Shown here in pieces: positions 2,864-44,919 of a DNA stretch of 64,000 bases (positions are counted from its first letter, which is position 1; each line of letters begins with the position of its first letter). The notes below the pieces were generated by a model, which was given only the letters and a program-made list of their open reading frames with translations, searched no databases and had not been told where the DNA came from. Both the position numbers and the translations under genes were made by a program. The stretch is from Dehalococcoidia bacterium (GTDB lineage: Bacteria > Chloroflexota > Dehalococcoidia > Bin125). The stretch is taken from contig DAOUKQ010000029.1 in the NCBI GenBank assembly GCA_034421135.1, positions 76,357-140,356 on the forward strand, read 5' to 3'.

Positions 2864-3124
2864 ATGACCGAACACGAAGGAGGCGAACAGATTGAGGTTC
2901 CTCACGGTCCCGCGACTCGTGAGGAGGTGATGGCGGGGATACGCAGGTTGGCCTATGAGGCCAGTTCCGAGACCGTCTGCCTGCGAGCGTGGGAGTTGAT
3001 GGGCAAGGACATCGGCATGTTCAAGGACGCGCCCGGGGAAGGCGGCGCGCCGGTTGTGCGCATGACGCCGTCGCTGGAAGCCGAACCGAGCATCGAAGGG
3101 GCGGACCATGACAACGAGCAGTAG
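2864..3124 (+). CDS. Small hypothetical protein (phage-associated, overlaps terminase start)
   Basis: 86 aa ORF overlapping the terminase start by 17 nt; preceded by an AT-richer promoter-like region; no recognisable domain. Confidence 0.35.
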   Translation: MTEHEGGEQIEVPHGPATREEVMAGIRRLAYEASSETVCLRAWELMGKDIGMFKDAPGEGGAPVVRMTPSLEAEPSIEGADHDNEQ

Positions 3125-4499
3125 CGTCTCCCTTGACCTCCGCGTCTTGCAACCAGGCGACCGCCACTTCAGACCGACCGAGCGCCAGCTCGCTGTCTAT
3201 GAAGCGCTGCGCGGGACGCCGGCGAGTGGTCTCACGCTGGTCGGATACGGCGGCGCGATGGGCGGCGGCAAGACTCGGGCCGTCGCCGAACTGGCGATCG
3301 ATACCGCCCTCTCCTTCCCTGGCACAAACATCCTCGTCGCCAGGCAGCATTACTCCAACCTGCAAACGACGACCATGCGCGAGTTCTTCGATTGCCTGCC
3401 CCAGCGATTGGTCGTGGAACGACATCGGTCGTCGCCGCAGTGGGTGGCGATCCGCGACGCCGCCTGGCCGAGGGGCGAGCGATCCACGATTCACTTCCGC
3501 CACCTGACCGAGTGGTCGGGCTTGGGTTCGGAGCAGTACGGCGCGGTGTTCATCGACGAAGCGGGCGAGGTCGCCGAAGAGGCCGCGCAAATGCTGCTCA
3601 CCCGGCTCCGCCATCCGGCTCAGCCGCAGCGATGGTTTGTCGCTGCGTCGAATCCCTGGCCGGGCTGGTTCGAGCGCTGGTTCACCCGTCGCGAGCTCGA
3701 CGAGGAATCCCTCGCCGCGGCGGGCGGCCGAATCGTCTTCATTCCCGCCAAAGTCGACGACAATCCGCATCTGCCCGCTCACTACGCCGAGCAGCAGCGC
3801 GCGCTGCAGCCGGGCGAGTGGGTCGACCGTTTCATCGACGGCCGCTTCGACGCGTTCGACGGCCAGATCTACCAGCACTTCGACGCGTCGCGGCACTGCT
3901 GGGACGCCCCGCTGCCGCCGTTCGCCCGCTACATCGGTGGTCTCGACTTCGGAGGACAATCGCCGCGCGACCACTACACGGCGGGTGTCGTCGCGGGCAT
4001 CACCGGCGGGAATGCGCCGTGCGGCGCAAACATCCTCATTCGTCTCGGCGAGTTCGAGGATCGCGGCCCCGGCGTCACCGAGCGGCTGGAGCAGTGGCAG
4101 CGATCCTGGCGACATAAGCTGGGTCCGATCCAGTGGTGCGCCGACCGCTCGCAGTCGGCCTGGATCGATCATCAACGCCGCCAGGGACTCAACGTCGTGC
4201 CCAGCAAGGGCGGCCCCGACTCCGTCAATTGGGGCATTTCGCTGGTCCAGCAACGACTCAACGGCGATCCGCCCAGCTCGTACTACGTCCCCGGCATGAC
4301 CCAGTTTCCAACTCGCATTCGCGAGTACCAGTGGGATCGCTCGGCGCACGATCAGTCGCCCAAACCGCGCAAGCGCAACGACGACTTGCTCGACGCCGAC
4401 CGCTATATGCACGAACTCAGCGTCAAGTCGCAGTCGTTCCCTCCGCGAATCATCATCAACCATCCGCCCCGAGGCCAGGATGCCCGCTGGCGGGGATGA
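3108..4499 (+). CDS. Phage terminase large subunit (PBSX/Terminase_6-like ATPase plus nuclease)
   Basis: 463 aa; Walker A GYGGAMGGGKTRA, Walker B VFIDEAGEV, C-terminal RNase-H-like nuclease region (GGLDFGG...); no other phage morphogenesis genes adjacent. Confidence 0.75.
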   Translation: MTTSSSVSLDLRVLQPGDRHFRPTERQLAVYEALRGTPASGLTLVGYGGAMGGGKTRAVAELAIDTALSFPGTNILVARQHYSNLQTTTMREFFDCLPQRLVVERHRSSPQWVAIRDAAWPRGERSTIHFRHLTEWSGLGSEQYGAVFIDEAGEVAEEAAQMLLTRLRHPAQPQRWFVAASNPWPGWFERWFTRRELDEESLAAAGGRIVFIPAKVDDNPHLPAHYAEQQRALQPGEWVDRFIDGRFDAFDGQIYQHFDASRHCWDAPLPPFARYIGGLDFGGQSPRDHYTAGVVAGITGGNAPCGANILIRLGEFEDRGPGVTERLEQWQRSWRHKLGPIQWCADRSQSAWIDHQRRQGLNVVPSKGGPDSVNWGISLVQQRLNGDPPSSYYVPGMTQFPTRIREYQWDRSAHDQSPKPRKRNDDLLDADRYMHELSVKSQSFPPRIIINHPPRGQDARWRG

Positions 4500-4538: not shown

Positions 4539-4916
4539 CTAATCGAACACCACTTCGATCAGCGGCGACCCGTCGACCCATTCCTGGACGTTGTCCTCGT
4601 TGATGTACTCGCTGAGCTTCTTCGCTGCGAGGAACACGGCGCGCTTCTCCTCCGCGTCGGTGACGGCTCGCGCGGCGCCTTCGAGATCGGCCTCGGTCGT
4701 TTCTTTGAGGTGAAAGGTGACGGCCGGGTTGGCCAGCACATTGGCGTACCACGAGCGCGGACCGGGGCGGCCGGTGATGTAGTAGCGATCGTCCACGTTA
4801 TGGAACCAGATCTCGATCCGCTTCGGCTCGCCGCTGGCGCGTCCGGTCGTCGTGATGTCGATTACCAGGTCGTTGGCCAACGCCGCGGCGACGGCGGGGT
4901 CGGAGGACGAAGTCAT
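4539..4916 (-). CDS. Deazaflavin(F420)-dependent nitroreductase family protein (DUF385-like)
   Basis: Core MTSSSDPAVAAALANDLVIDITTTGRASGEPKRIEIWFHNVDDRYYITGRPGP...; start trimmed from the ORF-track 5177 to the internal Met at 4916 because upstream 87 codons are Arg-rich junk overlapping ogt. Confidence 0.6.
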   Translation of the reverse strand: MTSSSDPAVAAALANDLVIDITTTGRASGEPKRIEIWFHNVDDRYYITGRPGPRSWYANVLANPAVTFHLKETTEADLEGAARAVTDAEEKRAVFLAAKKLSEYINEDNVQEWVDGSPLIEVVFD

Positions 4917-5434
4917 GCGTTGTGTCCGTTCCCGGAATGTCTGTCGATGTGGGTGCGCTCGTGCTCGAGGAACCACTCCTTGCGATGCAATCCGCCGCCG
5001 TAGCCGCCCAGACCGCCGTCGGAGCGAACGATTCGGTGGCACGGAACGGCAATGCCGACGGGATTGCGTCCCGTCGCGGTTCCCACCGCACGATACGCCG
5101 CTGGTTTGCCGACCGCCCGCGCGATGTCCTGGTACGACACCGTCGTCCCGGCGGGTACCTCGCGGATGGCCTGCCACACCGCTCGCTGGAACTCGGTCCC
5201 CTGGGGATCGATCTCAATCTCATCGATCAGTTCGACATCGCCTTCGAAGTACGCCGCGACCGCGTCGCGAAGACGCTGGGCCTCGCTCGACAGGCCCGAC
5301 TCCTCCGAGTCCGCTTCGGGCTCCAGCACCGGCCGCGCCCAGGTCTCGACGAATCCCGCCTCGCGCAGCGCGCCATCGGCGATCGCCAGGTACATCGTGC
5401 CCAGCGGGGTCTCAATCCAGCAGTGCTCGGTCAT
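4913..5434 (-). CDS. ogt: Methylated-DNA--protein-cysteine methyltransferase
   Basis: 173 aa; active-site PCHRIV motif, AGT C-terminal HTH; 4-nt overlap with the downstream nitroreductase gene. Confidence 0.85.
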   Translation of the reverse strand: MTEHCWIETPLGTMYLAIADGALREAGFVETWARPVLEPEADSEESGLSSEAQRLRDAVAAYFEGDVELIDEIEIDPQGTEFQRAVWQAIREVPAGTTVSYQDIARAVGKPAAYRAVGTATGRNPVGIAVPCHRIVRSDGGLGGYGGGLHRKEWFLEHERTHIDRHSGNGHNA

Positions 5435-5546
5435 GTCGGTGCTCCTCGGTGTTCGCTGCTGCTAGGCTACGCCGCTGTCAAGTAGAACGCAAGTACTGTG
5501 CGCCCTGGTATCCACTGAGTATCATGACCCGCAGGAGGATTGCGAC

Positions 5547-6188
5547 ATGGTGACCACGGCCGCGCCGTCCAGGCAATCCGCAGACCGGTCTCCCGGTTTC
5601 AACCGGTCGGATGAAGTGGTGATCGCCTTCCCCGACGACCTCAGCCTGACCGATGAACTGATCTGCGAACTGTCGCGCCTCAACGATTCGCTCAGGCTGG
5701 AACGGGACGAGCAAGGGAGGCTGCTGGTGTCGCCTGGGCCGGACTATGACAGCGACGATCACGCTGCGGAGTTGATCGAACAGATCAGCGTGTGGAATCG
5801 TACCCAACGCGGTCGCACGTTGATCCCAAGTACCACGTTGCATCTCCCCGACCACAATCTGCGCATGCCGGACGCCGGCTGGCTCAGTCCCGAGACGGCG
5901 GAACAAGCGCGCTCGGGCGAGCGCCCCTATCCGCAGGTCGTGCCGGACTTCGTGGTTGAGGTGCGTTCCTCAAACGACCGGTTGCCGGTTCAACAGGAAA
6001 AGATGGCCATGTGGATGCGCAATGGCGTCCGCCTCGGCTGGCTCGTCGATCCGTCTTCGCGCACGGTCTGGGTCTATCGACCCGACACAGAAGCGCAGGC
6101 TCATCAGGATCCCGGAGAGCTTTCGGCCGATCCTCCCTGCGAGGGCCTGACGATCTCGTTCGAACGCGTTTGGCGGACAGCGGAGTAG
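5547..6188 (+). CDS. Uma2 family (DUF820) restriction-endonuclease-fold protein, copy 1
   Basis: 213 aa; PD-(D/E)xK-like core PDFVVEVRSSNDRL...KMAMWMRNGVRLGWLVDP...VWVYRPD typical of Uma2/DUF820. Confidence 0.75.
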   Translation: MVTTAAPSRQSADRSPGFNRSDEVVIAFPDDLSLTDELICELSRLNDSLRLERDEQGRLLVSPGPDYDSDDHAAELIEQISVWNRTQRGRTLIPSTTLHLPDHNLRMPDAGWLSPETAEQARSGERPYPQVVPDFVVEVRSSNDRLPVQQEKMAMWMRNGVRLGWLVDPSSRTVWVYRPDTEAQAHQDPGELSADPPCEGLTISFERVWRTAE

Positions 6189-6200
6189 GCTCGAACAGCC

Positions 6201-6404
6201 ATGTCCGAATGCGACACCCGCGCCGTGCGTCTGACCGATCTCCTCCGAGTCCGCTTCAAGTTCCAGCACCGGCCGCGCCCAGGTTTCCACGAGTCCCGCC
6301 TCGCGCAGCGCGTCGTCGGCGATCGCCAGGTACATCGTATCCAGCGGCGTCTCGATCCAGTCGTGCTCGTTCGTGTCGCCGCTCCGCCTCTTCGCTGGCA
6401 TTAG
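6201..6404 (+). pseudogene. Chimeric duplication-junction ORF: first 14 codons of selD (MSECDTRAVRLTDL) fused to antisense of a duplicated ogt 5' fragment
   Basis: 6201-6242 is near-identical to selD start 7138-7180; 6240-6400 duplicates ogt 5291-5450 (minus-strand ORF 5970..6401 re-encodes the ogt N-terminus MYLAIADDALREAG). Confidence 0.6.
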
Positions 6405-6485
6405 GCTCAGGCGACATGAACTAGCACGTAAGTACTGTGCTAATCGCGCCTACCTGGGTATCATGGCGCTAAGGAGGATTGCGAC

Positions 6486-7127
6486 ATGGTGACCACGGCA
6501 GCGCCGTCCAGGCAATCCGCATCCCGCTCGTTCGCCTCAGTCTTGCAGGGCGAGGTCGCGATTGCGTTTCCGGACTCGATCAGCCTGACCGATGAGCTGA
6601 TCTGCGAACTGTCGCGCCTCAACGATTCGCTCAGGCTGGAGCGGGACGAGCAAGGGAGGCTGCTGGTGTCGCCTGGGCCGGACTATGACAGCAACCGAGT
6701 GGGCGCTCGCATTTTGGCGCAAATCTTCGCCTGGGATCCGGAATGGCTTGGGGAGCCGCTTGATCCTTCGTCGACGCTGCACCTTCCCGACCACAATCTG
6801 CGCATGCCGGACGCCGGTTGGCTCAGTCCCGAGACGGCGGAACGGGCGCGCTCGGGCGAGCGCCCCTATCCGCAGGTCGTGCCGGACTTCGTGGTTGAGG
6901 TGCGGTCTTCGAACGACCGGCTGTCCGTTCAACAGGAAAAAATGGCCATGTGGATGCGCAATGGCGTCCGCCTCGGCTGGCTCGTCGATCCGCCTTCGCG
7001 CACGGTCTGGGTCTATCGACCCGACACAGAAGCGCAGGCGCATCAGGATCCCGGAGAGCTTGCGGCCGATCCTCCCTGCGAGGGCCTGACGATCTCGTTC
7101 GAGCGCGTTTGGCTGATGGCGGAGTAG
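6486..7127 (+). CDS. Uma2 family (DUF820) protein, copy 2 (tandem duplicate of 5547..6188)
   Basis: 213 aa, identical to copy 1 except two divergent patches (aa 13-24 and 68-98). Confidence 0.75.
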   Translation: MVTTAAPSRQSASRSFASVLQGEVAIAFPDSISLTDELICELSRLNDSLRLERDEQGRLLVSPGPDYDSNRVGARILAQIFAWDPEWLGEPLDPSSTLHLPDHNLRMPDAGWLSPETAERARSGERPYPQVVPDFVVEVRSSNDRLSVQQEKMAMWMRNGVRLGWLVDPPSRTVWVYRPDTEAQAHQDPGELAADPPCEGLTISFERVWLMAE

Positions 7128-7137
7128 GCTCGAAGGC

Positions 7138-8241
7138 ATGTCCGACCGCGACAATCGAGCCGTCCGACTCACCGACCTCGCCCGCTGCGGCGGTTGAGGC
7201 TCGAAGTTTGGCCCCGAGGGGCTGGCGCACGTGCTGCGCCATCTTGGACCACAGTTTCCGCCCGAGCAGCATCCCGAGTTGCTCGTCGGCCTCGACCGGC
7301 CCGACGACGCAGCGGTCTACGCGCTCGACGACGAACGCGCGCTTGTGCAGACGCTCGATTTCTTCGCGCCGTTGGTCGACGACCCATACCAGTTCGGCGC
7401 AATCGCGGCCGCCAACGCCATGTCGGATGTCTACGCAATGGGTGGACGCGTCCTCTTCGCGCTCAACATCGCCGCCTTCCCCGACGACCTCCCGCCCGAC
7501 ATAATCGCGGAAGTCCTGCGCGGAGGCGCAGACAAGGTTCGCGAAGCTGGAGCCGTGATCGCCGGCGGACACACGATCATCGACGAAGAGCCCAAGTACG
7601 GTCTCGCGGTCACTGGCGAAGTCGCACGCGAACTGATTCGCACAACCGGCGGCGCACAGCCGGGCGACACGATCATTCTGACCAAGGAAATCGGCACCGG
7701 CGTCCTGATTGGCGCGAACCAGCAGGGCGCGGTGTCAGCGGAGCACTGGGACGGTGCAGTCTCGCAAATGATGTCGCTGAACCGGGATGCGGCCGAAGTC
7801 TCATCCGCTTCCGACCTGGCGCAGGGCGTCCATGCGATCGCAGACGTGACCGGCTTCGGACTCGCTGGACACCTGCATGAGATGTCGGGGCTGAGCGATG
7901 CCGCGATCGAGATTGACCTCGGCGCGGCGCCGGCGCTGGGCGGCCTTTCGGAGGCCGTGGCGGCAGGATTCGGCAGCGGCGGACAGAGTCGCAATCGCGA
8001 GTACTATGGCGCGCGCCTGACGGTCGAGGGCGACCGCGCACTGACCGCCTTCGAGGAAGCGCTGCTCTACGACCCGCAAACTTCCGGAGGCCTGCTGATC
8101 TCTGCGGGCATCATCGAGGCGCCGCATCTGATCCACGAACTTCAGCAACGCGGCGTCCAGGCGACACCCGTCGCTCGCGTGATTGAATCCGCCGCCGGCG
8201 GGCGACTGAGCGTTATTCCCTCGGAGACGCCGCGTGTCTGA
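7138..8241 (+). CDS. selD: Selenide, water dikinase (selenophosphate synthetase), selenocysteine-containing; in-frame UGA at 7195-7197
   Basis: ORF track starts at GTG 7231, but the in-frame upstream reads ATG(7138) MSDRDNRAVRLTDLARCGG-TGA-GSKFGPEGLAHVL, matching the E. coli SelD N-terminus [30 protein letters not shown] with UGA aligned to catalytic Cys17; downstream has AIAAANAMSDVYAMGG and the AIR-synthase-like fold. Confidence 0.8.
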
Positions 8242-9466
8242 TGCGTCCGGCAGTTGGGACGCCGATATCGCCGTCATCGGCGCGGGCATTCTCGGACTCT
8301 CGACTGCGATGGCCCTCGCCACATCGCACGACGACCTGCGTGTCGTCGCGCTGGAGCAGGAATCCGGCGTCGGACGACACCAGAGCGGCAACAACTCGGG
8401 CGTGATTCACTCCGGGCTGTACTACCGGCCCGGCTCAGCCAAGGCGCGCATGGCCGTGGCCGGCGCCGAGCGGATGTACGCCTTCTGCGACGAACACGGC
8501 ATCGGCGCAGAGCGCTGCGGTAAGGTTGTCGTCGCGACCCATGAGTCCGAACTCGAGCGGATGCGCGAGCTGCACCGTCGCGGCGACGCCAACGGCGTGC
8601 CCGACATCCGCGAGCTCGGACCCGACGAACTGCGCGAGTTTGAGCCCAACGCGGCCGGCGTCGCCGCGCTGCACATCCCGTCGACCGGCATCGCCGACTA
8701 CCGAGGCGTCTGCGAGAAGTACCGCGAGCTGCTGCAATCGGCTGGCGGATCGGTGCGGCTGCGGTCCCGCGTCTCGGGCGTTCGCGTCGACGCCGACGGC
8801 GTCCGGCTCTCGACCTCTACGGGAATCGTCCGCGCCAGGTACGTCGTCAACTGCGCCGGACTGCAGGCAGACCGCATCGCTCGGCGGGCGGGCGCGTCCG
8901 AGGCTCGCGACCTGCGCATCGTCCCGTTTCGCGGCGAGTACTACGACCTCGTGCCCTCGGCGCGGCACATGCTCAAGAACCTGATCTATCCCGTGCCCGA
9001 CCCGGCCTTCCCGTTCCTCGGCGTGCATTTCACGCGGCGGCTGGACGGCACCGTCGAGGCGGGCCCCAACGCCGTCCTGGCGCTCAAGCGCGAGGGCTAC
9101 CGCTGGCGCGACATCTCCGCCCGCGACACGGCGGAATCGCTGACCTGGCCCGGCTTCCTCCGGCTGGCCAGGGGCCACTGGCAGACCGGCCTCGGAGAAA
9201 TCTGGCGCAGCGCCAACAAACCCGCCTTCGTCAACGCCCTCCAACGCCTGATGCCCAACCTCGAACCCGATCAACTCACCCGAGGAGGAGCCGGAGTCAG
9301 AGCCCAAGCCCTCCGCCGAGACGGCACCTTAGCCGACGACTTCGAAATCGCCCACCAGGATCGCCTCATCCACATCCTCAACGCCCCCAGCCCCGGCGCC
9401 ACGGCCAGCCTGCTTATCGGAGAAGAAATCGCAGCGACGGCAGAGTCGGCATGGTTGGGGGGATAA
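8234..9466 (+). CDS. lhgO: L-2-hydroxyglutarate oxidase/dehydrogenase (FAD-dependent)
   Basis: 410 aa; N-terminal FAD Rossmann DIAVIGAGILGLSTAMAL; alignable along its length to E. coli LhgO/YgaF (GNNSGVIHSGLYY, RIVPFRGEYY, AGVRAQA, NAPSPGATAS). Confidence 0.8.
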   Translation: MSDASGSWDADIAVIGAGILGLSTAMALATSHDDLRVVALEQESGVGRHQSGNNSGVIHSGLYYRPGSAKARMAVAGAERMYAFCDEHGIGAERCGKVVVATHESELERMRELHRRGDANGVPDIRELGPDELREFEPNAAGVAALHIPSTGIADYRGVCEKYRELLQSAGGSVRLRSRVSGVRVDADGVRLSTSTGIVRARYVVNCAGLQADRIARRAGASEARDLRIVPFRGEYYDLVPSARHMLKNLIYPVPDPAFPFLGVHFTRRLDGTVEAGPNAVLALKREGYRWRDISARDTAESLTWPGFLRLARGHWQTGLGEIWRSANKPAFVNALQRLMPNLEPDQLTRGGAGVRAQALRRDGTLADDFEIAHQDRLIHILNAPSPGATASLLIGEEIAATAESAWLGG

Positions 9467-15193: not shown

Positions 15194-15841
15194 ATGATCA
15201 CCAGCGCTCCTGCCGACGCACCACCGCTCCCCGGGTTGATCCGCATCGGTTGCGGCCTGAGTGCGATCAGCGACGAAGACCTCGAGCGGATCTGTGACGA
15301 GAACCCAGGTTGGAAGTTCGAGCTCGACGAAGACGGGGAGTTGGTGATCAACGTGTACGCCGGTGATGAGAGTTCGGACGTCGGAGCGGAACTTGGGGGA
15401 CAGCTTCGCAATTGGCGCATCGGCGGCGGCGGTGGACGAGCCCGAGACGCCAGCGCCGGTTACCGCATGACCGACACCGAGGGACGCACGCGGTTGCTGG
15501 AACCGGATGTCTCCTGGGTGAGTCCTGAACGGCTGGCCGCGGCCACACGCGAAGACGTGAAGGGCGCGATGTCGTTCAATCCGGACTTTGTCGTCGAGGT
15601 TCGCTCGCCCAGCGATAGCTTGAGTGATCAACAGACCAAGATGGAAATCTGGATGCACTTCGGCGTGCGCCTCGGCTGGCTCGTCGATCTCGACGCCTGC
15701 AACGTGTGGATCTACCGGCAAGGTCAGGAGCCGCAGCTCCTTGAGCGACCCTCGACGCTGGACGGCGAAGACGTGCTGGTCGGCCTTGAGGTCGACTGCG
15801 CTGAAATCTGGCGTCTGGCCGACGAAGCCAACGCGGACTGA
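15194..15841 (+). CDS. Uma2 family (DUF820) protein, paralog 3
   Basis: 215 aa; PDFVVEVRSPSDSLSDQQTKMEIWMHFGVRLGWLVDLDACNVWIYRQG. Confidence 0.7.
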   Translation: MITSAPADAPPLPGLIRIGCGLSAISDEDLERICDENPGWKFELDEDGELVINVYAGDESSDVGAELGGQLRNWRIGGGGGRARDASAGYRMTDTEGRTRLLEPDVSWVSPERLAAATREDVKGAMSFNPDFVVEVRSPSDSLSDQQTKMEIWMHFGVRLGWLVDLDACNVWIYRQGQEPQLLERPSTLDGEDVLVGLEVDCAEIWRLADEANAD

Positions 15842-36716: not shown

Positions 36717-37406
36717 TTACTCGGCGGCGTCCGCAGGACCGCGGGCCGCGTCGAGATCCCAGACGTGCTCGAAGCTGATCGTGAGTCCCTGGCAGACCGG
36801 CTCCGCGGACAACTCCTGGGGACGCTCAGCCAGATCAACCGTCCCATCGGCGCGATAGATGTAGACGGCCTCGCGCTCGGGAACGACGAGCCATCCGAGT
36901 TGAGTCCCGCCGGCGATCCAGGCGGCCATCTTCCGTTGCTGACTGGCGATTGTGTCGCTGCCCGAGCGGACCTCGATCACGAAATCGGGACAGATCGGCT
37001 GATAGATCTCGCGTCGCTCGGCATCGGTCATTGAGGCCCGGCGCTCAGGACTGGTCCAGGCGGCGTCGGGCGCGGCGGTGTTGCCGTCCCCGCGCCGGTA
37101 ACCGCCGCTCGATCCGGTGGTCACGCCTCCGACTCCGCCCCGGACCCACGTCATCAGTTGGTAGGCGAGTTCCAGACTGATCTCATCGGCGTCGTATCCG
37201 GCAGGCGCCATAATCAGCAACTCTCCACTCCCGGTTCGCTCGAACTGCCAGGGCTTGTTCAGCCGACTGATCTGCTCAAGCAGCTTGTCCGACAACGGGA
37301 CATCGTCCGGCAACCGGAGCAGCATCGGCAATCCGTCCGGAGAACAGGCGATCTCCTCCAGCAGCGTGGACGGCTCTACCAAGGGCTTGGCTGGTGTCGA
37401 GACCAT
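36717..37406 (-). CDS. Uma2 family (DUF820) protein, paralog 4
   Basis: 229 aa; PDFVIEVRSGSDTIASQQRKMAAWIAGGTQLGWLVVPEREAVYIYR. Confidence 0.7.
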   Translation of the reverse strand: MVSTPAKPLVEPSTLLEEIACSPDGLPMLLRLPDDVPLSDKLLEQISRLNKPWQFERTGSGELLIMAPAGYDADEISLELAYQLMTWVRGGVGGVTTGSSGGYRRGDGNTAAPDAAWTSPERRASMTDAERREIYQPICPDFVIEVRSGSDTIASQQRKMAAWIAGGTQLGWLVVPEREAVYIYRADGTVDLAERPQELSAEPVCQGLTISFEHVWDLDAARGPADAAE

Positions 37407-44280: not shown

Positions 44281-44919
44281 TCACTTCCAGATACGTCTCA
44301 GGCTGACTTCAAGACCCTGACAGACATCTTCGCCACTGAGGGTATCGGGACGCTGAGCCTGCTCCGGTTCCTCATCTGGCCGGTAGATCGTGACGGTGTC
44401 CCGGAACGGGTCAATCAGCCAGCCCAGCAGCGCGCCGTACCGGAGCCATGCTTCCATCTTCGTTTGCTGTTCCTCAGGAATGTCGGTGGCCGAGACGATC
44501 TCGACAATCAACTCGGGACAGGCATCGAGCAATCCCTCATCGTCGAGGCTGCGGTCGCCCCAGCGTTCATCGCTGATCCACGCGACATCGGGCATCTGCA
44601 TCGATCCGTCGTCATGTCGGACTCCGAGTTGAGGTCCAAAGACCTGGCCCAATGAGGTCGACTCGCTCCAACCTTCGATCTGGAAGGCCGGTCGTATGCC
44701 GCGCCTGCTGCTGCCCGGACCGTCCGGCGACACAAACACCAATTCTCTGTCTGCAGTCAGCTCGAAATCCCAGGGCTCGTTGAGCCGCGCGAGTTCGATC
44801 AACGCCTGATCGGTCGGCTCCCAATCCGCCGGCAGCTTCAAGCGGTTCGAGACTGGCGGCGTATGCGGTTCGGGGAGCTGCAGGGCGTCAGTCCTGGGTT
44901 TGACAGGGGACGTGACCAT
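44281..44919 (-). CDS. Uma2 family (DUF820) protein, paralog 6
   Basis: 212 aa; PELIVEIVSATDIPEEQQTKMEAWLRYGALLGWLIDPFRDTVTIYRPD. Confidence 0.7.
   Translation of the reverse strand: MVTSPVKPRTDALQLPEPHTPPVSNRLKLPADWEPTDQALIELARLNEPWDFELTADRELVFVSPDGPGSSRRGIRPAFQIEGWSESTSLGQVFGPQLGVRHDDGSMQMPDVAWISDERWGDRSLDDEGLLDACPELIVEIVSATDIPEEQQTKMEAWLRYGALLGWLIDPFRDTVTIYRPDEEPEQAQRPDTLSGEDVCQGLEVSLRRIWK

Follow-up and report, generated by a model that had tools for sequence, protein, structure and literature searches.

Why does a Dehalococcoidia genome carry two Uma2 genes between ogt and selD, and why are the differences between these genes concentrated in two short patches? We examined these questions in the window (i.e., the whole 64,000-nucleotide stretch of DNA that was analyzed). 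The explanation that we favor, with a probability of roughly 80%, combines a tandem duplication at a microhomology with a mosaic of alleles from different strains, and includes a presumed order of events and a presumed role of one patch in specificity.

The genes of the locus are arranged in the order ogt, Uma2A, codons 1 to 13 of selD, the 45 N-terminal codons of ogt, Uma2B, and an intact selD. The intact ogt (4913 to 5434, minus strand), an ORF for a 173-aa O6-alkylguanine-DNA alkyltransferase (PF01035, E = 3e-34), was syntenic in all of the related loci. Between it and Uma2A (5547 to 6188, plus strand; 213 aa; PF05685, E = 6e-29) lies a divergent intergenic region (5435 to 5546), for which alignments and a box search revealed a conserved box, AGAACGCAAGTACT (5484 to 5497), a TATCAT element, and an AGGAGG ribosome-binding site. 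This region was duplicated along with the unit. Its second copy (6375 to 6485; box search and alignment) precedes Uma2B (6486 to 7127, plus strand; 213 aa; PF05685, E = 5e-27), retains a degenerate box (6423 to 6436), TATCAT, and AGGAGG, and is the most diverged part outside the patches. The intact selD (7138 to 8241, plus strand) was identified as a selenophosphate synthetase gene by its translation and its AIRS/AIRS_C domains, and has an in-frame TGA (selenocysteine) codon at 7195 to 7197; an FAD oxidase gene (8234 to 9466) lies downstream of it. RNA folding 3' of this UGA was no better than that of shuffles. A scan of positions 5200 to 7300 for sigma-70 promoters and terminators gave no match, and an Rfam scan of positions 4800 to 7600 gave no credible match.

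These genes form a direct head-to-tail repeat with a period of 939 to 940 nt, copy A spanning positions 5300 to 6239 and copy B positions 6240 to 7179. The 940-bp unit runs from the middle of ogt through Uma2 to selD codon 13 and comprises ogt codons 1 to 45 (5300 to 5434 in copy A), an intergenic region of 112 nt, the Uma2 gene, and selD codons 1 to 13; the first 42 nt of the intact selD form the end of copy B. The copies abut without a spacer, and both flanking genes, ogt and selD, are truncated at the join. A three-way comparison of the junction with its two parental sites placed the change from selD to ogt at 6239 to 6242, with a microhomology of CTC, or of 7 of 8 nt when read as CCGA-x-CTC. 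The selD 5' stub (6201 to 6239, plus strand; 13 codons, MSECDTRAVRLTD), recognized by comparison with selD alleles, opens a chimeric ORF of 67 aa (6201 to 6404, plus strand), and a new ATG upstream of the ogt remnant, at 6399 to 6401, opens another of 143 aa (5970 to 6401, minus strand). The original prediction had described a tandem duplication whose breakpoints lie within ogt and selD, as well as both chimeric ORFs, and was borne out on these points; the repeat that it placed at about 5291 to 6240 and 6240 to 7190 exists, with the limits measured above. The novel junction, the truncated flanks, the single-copy relatives, and the recurrence of the junction elsewhere (the last two described below) confirm a tandem segmental duplication.

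Comparison with sister strains, a check that had been proposed along with the duplication, was informative. In about eleven related Dehalococcoidia loci (listed as L003 to L006, L011, L015, L016, L019, L020, L021, L022, and L023), a single Uma2 gene stands between ogt and selD, with no remnants of a second copy. The duplication therefore belongs to the lineage of the window, and the distribution of these loci indicates that a single copy is the ancestral state at the ogt/selD locus. One further locus, L018, contains a tandem Uma2 pair that arose independently: its period is 709 nt, its breakpoints differ from those in the window, and its genes belong to two cassette classes (see below).

Uma2A and Uma2B differ at 81 of 153 bases in the patches and at 22 of 489 bases in the backbone (Fisher P = 2e-39), and six of the backbone differences are amino acid changes. 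The claim that the copies were identical outside two patches was thus incorrect. The existence of two patches was correctly recognized, and their limits, given as aa 13 to 24 and 68 to 98, are revised here to aa 13 to 32 (patch 1; 5583 to 5640 in A and 6522 to 6579 in B) and aa 70 to 97 (patch 2; 5754 to 5846 in A and 6693 to 6785 in B). Nor are the patches completely different at the DNA level, as had been stated: the two versions are equally long, align in register, and are 42 to 50% identical, versus 25 to 27% for shuffled sequences. They also tested negative for inversion and for a compensated frameshift. A diversity-generating retroelement target was rejected as well, given that the substitutions involve all bases rather than being adenine specific and that the window contains no template-like second copy. 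In the backbone, 15 synonymous and 4 nonsynonymous differences correspond to a dS of 0.14 and a dN of 0.011 (dN/dS of ~0.08), and both copies are under purifying selection. In the patches, synonymous sites are saturated (pS of 0.72 to 0.81), next to adjacent backbone with a dS of 0.07 to 0.17. Because of this saturation against a backbone dS of 0.14, the mosaic cannot be point drift, and the original prediction was right to discount it.

The patch variants also occur in the orthologs of other strains, in a small allele sample of ~26 proteins and 14 loci, all metagenomic. Patch 2 of copy A matched the single-copy gene of L022 at 89 of 90 positions and that of L011 at 87 of 90, and patch 2 of copy B matched the single-copy gene of L021 at 84 of 90 (L005 was 82% identical). 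The second half of patch 1 in copy B matched L021 at 28 of 30 positions. Among the sampled loci, no source was found for the first half of this patch (aa 12 to 22), for the intergenic copy of copy B, or for the 12 changes that are private to the ogt remnant. Similarity to L022 is itself segmental, with ~1% differences from copy A over positions 5250 to 5950 and ~11% beyond.

The block at aa 70 to 97 (here called the cassette) falls into discrete classes whose distribution disagrees with the backbone phylogeny; Uma2A carries class I and Uma2B class II. Twelve protein pairs had a backbone identity of at least 88% but different cassette classes; in the single-copy orthologs of L005 and L020, the backbones are 94 to 100% identical and patch 2 is 44% identical. 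The divergent block covered ~aa 70 to 97 in each of the five different-class pairs for which boundaries were plotted (5/5). Additionally, the cassette was less diverged than the backbone between Uma2B and L005 (pS of 0.47 versus 0.73, P = 0.04). In relatives, the patch variants occur as alleles of this same orthologous gene; the underlying process is therefore interstrain recombination at a single locus. Together with the incongruence of segments, the same tract variants in other strains identify Uma2A and Uma2B as interstrain mosaic alleles of one gene, and not as products of drift or of conversion from other paralogs.

Other explanations of this pattern were weighed against that reading. The cassette classes might be old paralogs, i.e., an ancient tandem array whose backbones were homogenized by conversion while the cassettes were protected, with later loss of copies. 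Tandem pairs of different classes in two lineages (the window and L018), the constancy of cassette boundaries wherever they were plotted, and the near-identical backbones of L005 and L020 with their different classes would all suit such a history, but we consider it improbable. The array in the window contains ogt and selD fragments and is thus a discrete recent event, the L018 array has a different period and different breakpoints, and the single-copy loci lack remnants. Moreover, the remnants have diverged about as far (0.09 to 0.12) as the A and B backbones (dS of 0.14), so no homogenization is needed.

Gene conversion from Uma2 paralogs of the same genome, which would have overwritten short tracts after duplication in situ and which the original prediction preferred to drift, is very unlikely. 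The edges of the mosaic are sharp and the window contains five Uma2 genes, as such conversion would lead one to expect; however, only three of these, and not four as previously counted, are additional to Uma2A and Uma2B, and they share 35 to 42% protein identity with the pair. Alignment of the patches with these genes had been suggested as a check, and tblastn and short-word blastn searches of the whole window yielded only chance words of 9 to 14 nt. As far as the 64-kb sequence goes, then, it appears to hold no donor paralog. A protein database search found no further member of the Uma2A/B subfamily from the source genome, and the pattern is sufficiently explained by the exact or nearly exact counterparts of the patches that other strains have in their single-copy orthologs. 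The patch searches also returned one 19-nt identity to selD. A candidate sixth Uma2 gene, a weak tblastn match at ~63500 near the end of the window, was discarded because it had no supporting ORF, and a subfamily profile scan of JGI metagenome contigs gave no match.

Even smaller is the chance that metagenome assembly concatenated class-I and class-II haplotypes of co-occurring strains. Such an error is conceivable in a short-read metagenome scaffold like the window, and single-copy strains of both classes do exist. However, the identical junction is present in the L024 contig from another sample (SAMN17524319), which was assembled independently and is 95.9% identical to the window (~4.1% diverged, 52 mismatches). 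The repeat is therefore not an assembly artifact, which answers a concern raised with the original prediction. The parents of the junction share only 3 to 8 nt, too little for a k-mer graph error, and the ogt fragment adjoining the junction lacks a start codon as well as residues that are otherwise invariant, so that it does not derive from an intact gene of a second strain. Least credible of all is that, once the duplication had occurred, strong positive selection on point mutations made the patches diverge in situ, a history that would account for their high dN (0.5 to 0.85) but not for saturated synonymous sites beside a little-diverged backbone or for the near-identical versions of both patches already present in other genomes.

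The pieces of the flanking genes bear on the interstrain mosaic that we favor. The selD stub is identical to the intact selD of L021 at 36 of 39 positions but to the window's own selD at only 30 of 39; the 5' end of the latter is 38/39 identical to L022, L015, and L011. In an early reading, the stub and the ogt remnant were both attributed to decay after the duplication. For selD this was wrong: because the intact L021 gene carries the sequence of the stub, the stub is an L021-type allele rather than a decayed copy. Junction stubs of flanking genes can thus be alleles from another strain. The ogt N-terminal remnant (codons 1 to 45; 6240 to 6374, minus strand), compared with ogt orthologs, has its start ATG changed to ACG, and C5, G12, and G21, invariant in the orthologs, are all replaced by Asp. 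It differs from ogt at 16 positions (8 synonymous and 8 nonsynonymous), 12 of which are derived on the remnant side. There is a hint that part of this divergence is older than the pseudogenization, which would mean an unsampled donor lineage.

The ancestral locus consisted of ogt, a single Uma2 gene, and selD, and illegitimate recombination at a 3- to 8-nt microhomology produced the duplication in one Dehalococcoidia lineage. Each Uma2 copy has a complete upstream control region, which forms part of the unit, so that both may be independently expressible; selection on both has remained strongly purifying. In the population, the Uma2 gene is a recombination mosaic, its aa 70 to 97 block existing in discrete, anciently diverged classes that strains exchange through homologous recombination in the conserved flanks. 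Several hundred base pairs of one copy would have been replaced, after the duplication, with DNA of a strain that carried the other allele. From ogt to ~aa 135, copy A is ~99% identical to the L022 type, and the selD stub and the copy B cassette are of the L021 type. Alternatively, the tandem array itself may have spread between strains by recombination; several orders of events would fit, none of them uniquely.

The duplication resembles microhomology-mediated tandem duplications of bacteria, such as those known from Salmonella and E. coli, in being head to tail, without a spacer, based on few shared bases, flanked by truncated genes, and polymorphic among strains. It is ordinary in mechanism, a textbook structural variant, and its modest interest lies in the biology of Uma2. 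Tandem duplications in bacteria are usually lost fast without selection. The array in the window, unlike these, has persisted to ~0.14 synonymous substitutions per site and in strains 4% apart. Cassette alleles that spread by homologous recombination are familiar from the target-recognition domains of type I hsdS genes and from the mosaic pbp genes of pneumococci. The Uma2 alleles share with them diverged blocks in conserved flanks, incongruence between block and backbone, and sharp, recurrent breakpoints; in contrast, the Uma2 block is only ~28 residues long and forms part of the catalytic core fold rather than of a separate recognition domain. In the "permanent heterozygosity" model, a duplication fixes two alleles of a polymorphic gene. 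Similarly, two alleles that segregate as single copies were placed side by side twice independently (in the window and in L018), although here the host is haploid, its recombination depending on the uptake or transfer of DNA. Two alleles of one gene can thus be retained in an uncultured, recombining lineage with a haploid genome.

Profile matches and predicted structure assign Uma2A and Uma2B to the Uma2 (PF05685/COG4636) family of the PD-(D/E)xK fold, whose members are putative nucleases. Pfam Uma2 scores were 101 bits for copy A and 95 bits for copy B (cutoff, 27), and a profile search matched 1WDJ (E = 1e-25). The AF2 model of Uma2A had a pLDDT of 88 with 57 sequences (44 with 23 close homologs) and matched TT1808 (1WDJ_A) with an E value of 2e-19, TM scores of 0.79/0.90, and an rmsd of 1.8 Å. 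In the sets of 23 and 57 sequences, S69, P108-D109, E138-x-R140, and K152 show no or almost no variation. The fold and the S-PD-EXR-K residues are common to both copies and to family (COG4636/DUF820) members such as TT1808 (PDB 1WDJ), for which the S-PD-EXR-K/PD-EX(K/R)-K active-site layout was described (PMC551604). Secondary structure in the modeled cassette consists of a helix (aa 67 to 84) and a strand (aa 90 to 92); the block begins directly after the active-site Ser69 and is predicted to comprise helix α1 and strand β1.

Because its classes are exchangeable and two duplications each pair two of them, this block beside the active site is where determinants of substrate or partner specificity should be sought. 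Its position in the predicted structure and the population pattern suggest that the cassette may set such specificity in a nuclease-like protein, that the tandem array may persist because it provides a single genome with two specificities, and that carrying both Uma2 alleles would presumably be advantageous. Discrete, shuffled classes are typical of self/non-self or target-recognition modules, as in toxin/immunity specificity or DNA-target choice. We put forward as a tentative and rather doubtful extension that the cassette is a modular specificity element beside the catalytic serine, with ancient classes under balancing or frequency-dependent selection that are shuffled between strains, and with two specificities repeatedly fixed by independent tandem duplications (the 940-nt unit of the window and the 709-nt unit of L018). 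To our knowledge, Uma2 is an abundant nuclease-like family without a known function; if the cassette does determine specificity, it would provide a first functional handle on this large family.

Two studies of the family (PMC551604 and PMC3424549) contain no published activity for any Uma2 member, and the family has been described as one that forms paralogous gene cassettes and that may act as a solo toxin (PMC2701414). We found nothing in the literature on an exchangeable allelic block in helix α1 and strand β1 of Uma2. Expansions of Uma2 have been described in cyanobacteria, whereas in Dehalococcoidia the gene occurs as one copy in conserved synteny with ogt and selD, between which it lies.

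The duplicated region is a direct head-to-tail repeat with a period of 939-940 nt, in which copy A (5300-6239) is followed by copy B (6240-7179). Its gene content, established from open reading frames (ORFs), Pfam matches, and translation, consists of ogt (4913-5434, minus strand; PF01035), Uma2A (5547-6188; PF05685), a selD stub of 13 codons (6201-6239), the first 45 codons of ogt (6240-6374, minus strand), Uma2B (6486-7127; PF05685), and an intact selD (7138-8241), whose codon 20 is an in-frame TGA (selenocysteine). The junction reads ...CTGACCGAT up to the breakpoint and CTCCTCCGAG... after it. CTC is an exact match between both parental sites (7 of 8 nt as CCGA-x-CTC), and the junction bears the signature of illegitimate, microhomology-mediated joining.

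The window derives from a metagenome scaffold (NGUY21-1_SAMN17524320 scaffold_72), and its relatives carry the names of Dehalococcoidia MAGs. Another sample yielded a 1,313-nt contig (L024; SAMN17524319) that aligns colinearly with window positions 5911-7221 and contains the junction exactly as in the window, yet differs at 52 positions; this shows the array to be real and inherited, present in strains about 4% apart. The piece of ogt at the junction is a true remnant. Its former ATG is now ACG, and C5, G12, and G21, which are invariant in the orthologues encoding the same stretch, have all been replaced by Asp. An intact ogt of a second strain, concatenated in error, would not show such changes. 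The tandem duplication of the original prediction was thus confirmed by repeat geometry, gene content, junction, and an independent contig as a real event formed at microhomology, and ORF analysis recovered both of the predicted chimeric ORFs.

The gene order at this locus is F420-dependent reductase, ogt, Uma2, selD, and FAD oxidase. Uma2 is single copy there in related Dehalococcoidia loci (L003-L006, L011, L015, L016, and L019-L023); L003-L006 represent species and include two megabase-scale assemblies. It follows that the duplication is confined to the window's lineage and that the single-copy state is ancestral. A lone gene resembling the large subunit of a phage terminase (PF04466, PF03237) lies immediately upstream of the locus (3108-4499), and its position is conserved in L015 and L022.

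Uma2A and Uma2B align codon for codon without indels. In two patches (about amino acids [aa] 12-32 and 69-98), 81 of 153 nt differ, compared with 22 of the 489 nt outside them (Fisher p = 2e-39). The remainder of the gene, the backbone, shows 15 synonymous and 4 nonsynonymous differences (dS, 0.14; dN, 0.011; ratio, ~0.08); both copies have been kept functional under purifying selection. Synonymous sites in the patches are saturated, and the patches remain homologous (42-50% identity versus 25-27% for shuffles). Comparison of the patches between the two genes for inversion, frameshift, and adenine-specific bias revealed none of these. Between the patches, the DNA of positions 5643-5753 (aa 33-68) is nearly invariant in both copies, L011, L015, L021, and L022 (94-100% identity; dS, 0.07-0.16 across the clade), with adjacent segments far less conserved; a recent sweep or nucleotide-level constraint could account for this.

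The original prediction attributed the mosaic to conversion from Uma2 paralogs. The three other Uma2 genes in the window (15194-15841, 36717-37406, and 44281-44919) show 35-42% protein identity and share nothing with the patches beyond chance words. A database search delineated a subfamily of ~23 proteins (209-214 aa), and cluster-mates of Uma2A and Uma2B led to three further contigs, from strains with one A-like gene (L022 and L023) or one B-like gene (L021), in which Uma2 is flanked by intact ogt and intact selD. Patch 2 of Uma2A matched that of L022 at 89 of 90 positions and that of L011 at 87 of 90, and patch 2 of Uma2B matched L021 at 84 of 90. For patch 1 of Uma2B, the second half matched L021 (28/30) and L015 (26/30), and the first half, in the predicted disordered tail, reached 20/33 with its best sampled match. 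The variant patches are alleles of one and the same locus and have been exchanged between strains; recombination was thus correctly predicted, but paralogs as donors were not.

The selD stub behind copy A looks decayed but in fact matches the intact selD of L021 at 36 of 39 positions and the window's own selD at only 30 of 39. Copy A and ogt diverge from L022 by ~1% over 5250-5950 and by ~11% beyond, where copy A is closest to copy B (~5%). The genome around the locus is also mosaic: in most of the flanks the window differs from L022 by 1-3%, but over 7400-9000 (the 3' part of selD and its FAD oxidase neighbour) by 10-23%, a second recombination block adjoining the duplication. Among the sampled sequences, no source was found for the ogt remnant (with 8 synonymous and 8 nonsynonymous differences), for the intergenic region of copy B, or for the first half of patch 1. 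Patch 1 of Uma2A (5624-5642) and the selD body (7473-7491) share 19 identical nt (CGCCTTCCCCGACGACCTC) that specify AFPDDL in each gene (E = 1e-5 in blastn-short); either chance, given strong codon bias, or micro-conversion could explain this match. One copy would have been overwritten after the duplication by DNA of a strain that carried the alternative allele; alternatively, the array itself may have spread by recombination.

The patch 2 block, or cassette (aa 70-97), exists across the subfamily in discrete classes that do not track the backbone. Twelve protein pairs combine a backbone identity of at least 88% with different cassette classes, and in the five of these with plotted boundaries the divergent block runs from about aa 70 to about aa 97. 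The single-copy orthologues of L005 (5938-6567) and L020 (5001-5630) are 94-100% identical in the backbone and 44% identical in the cassette (aa 69-98), a clean natural cassette swap; their genomes are near-identical. Between Uma2B and L005, the cassette (82% identical) is less diverged than the backbones (65-71% identical) at both kinds of site (synonymous, p = 0.04; nonsynonymous, p = 0.03), suggesting that the cassette has moved laterally. In a different Dehalococcoidia lineage, L018 (4990-6400; ERZ21830300 ctg696792l) carries a tandem Uma2 pair with two cassette classes between ogt and selD. Its unit covers a ribosome-binding site, the ORF, and roughly 60 additional nt, and the copies are 85-90% identical outside the nonmatching cassette. 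The 709-nt period and lack of ogt or selD fragments indicate an event independent of the window's duplication.

A confident AlphaFold model of Uma2 built from 57 sequences (pLDDT, 88; pTM, 0.83) superposed on TT1808 (1WDJ) with TM scores of 0.79/0.90; residues 1-21 are disordered. S69, P108-D109, E138-x-R140, and K152 correspond to the variant active site "S-PD-EXR-K" reported for TT1808 (PMC551604). The cassette starts directly after the invariant S69 and forms a helix (67-84), a loop, and a strand (90-92). Uma2 proteins, a family without demonstrated activity, have been described as possible solo toxins whose paralogous genes form cassettes in cyanobacteria (PMC2701414; PMC3424549). The cassette may set a specificity, and the array might be kept because it holds two specificities together. 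The mechanism is ordinary; the polymorphism of the cassette next to the active site of Uma2, which two independent duplications have captured, offers a modestly novel and testable lead.

The breakpoint falls within an unannotated part of selD, a selenoprotein gene (motif ...ARCGGUGSKFG; TGA at 7195-7197). Gene callers place its start at GTG 7231 (336 aa) in every locus, leaving a conserved 31-codon N terminus (7138-7230) unannotated. The region after the UGA folded no better than shuffles, and the selD region had no match to SECIS in Rfam. The divergent ogt/Uma2 intergenic region contains an imperfect palindrome, AGAAC-N4-GTACT (5484-5497), that is conserved in all lineages at the same position (L003-L006, L011, L015, L021, and L022); the copy before Uma2B (6423-6436) is degenerate (AGCAC...). 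With at most one mismatch, it has nine matches in the window versus 2.6 expected, and it resembles the Gram-positive LexA (Cheo) box, GAAC-N4-GTTC.
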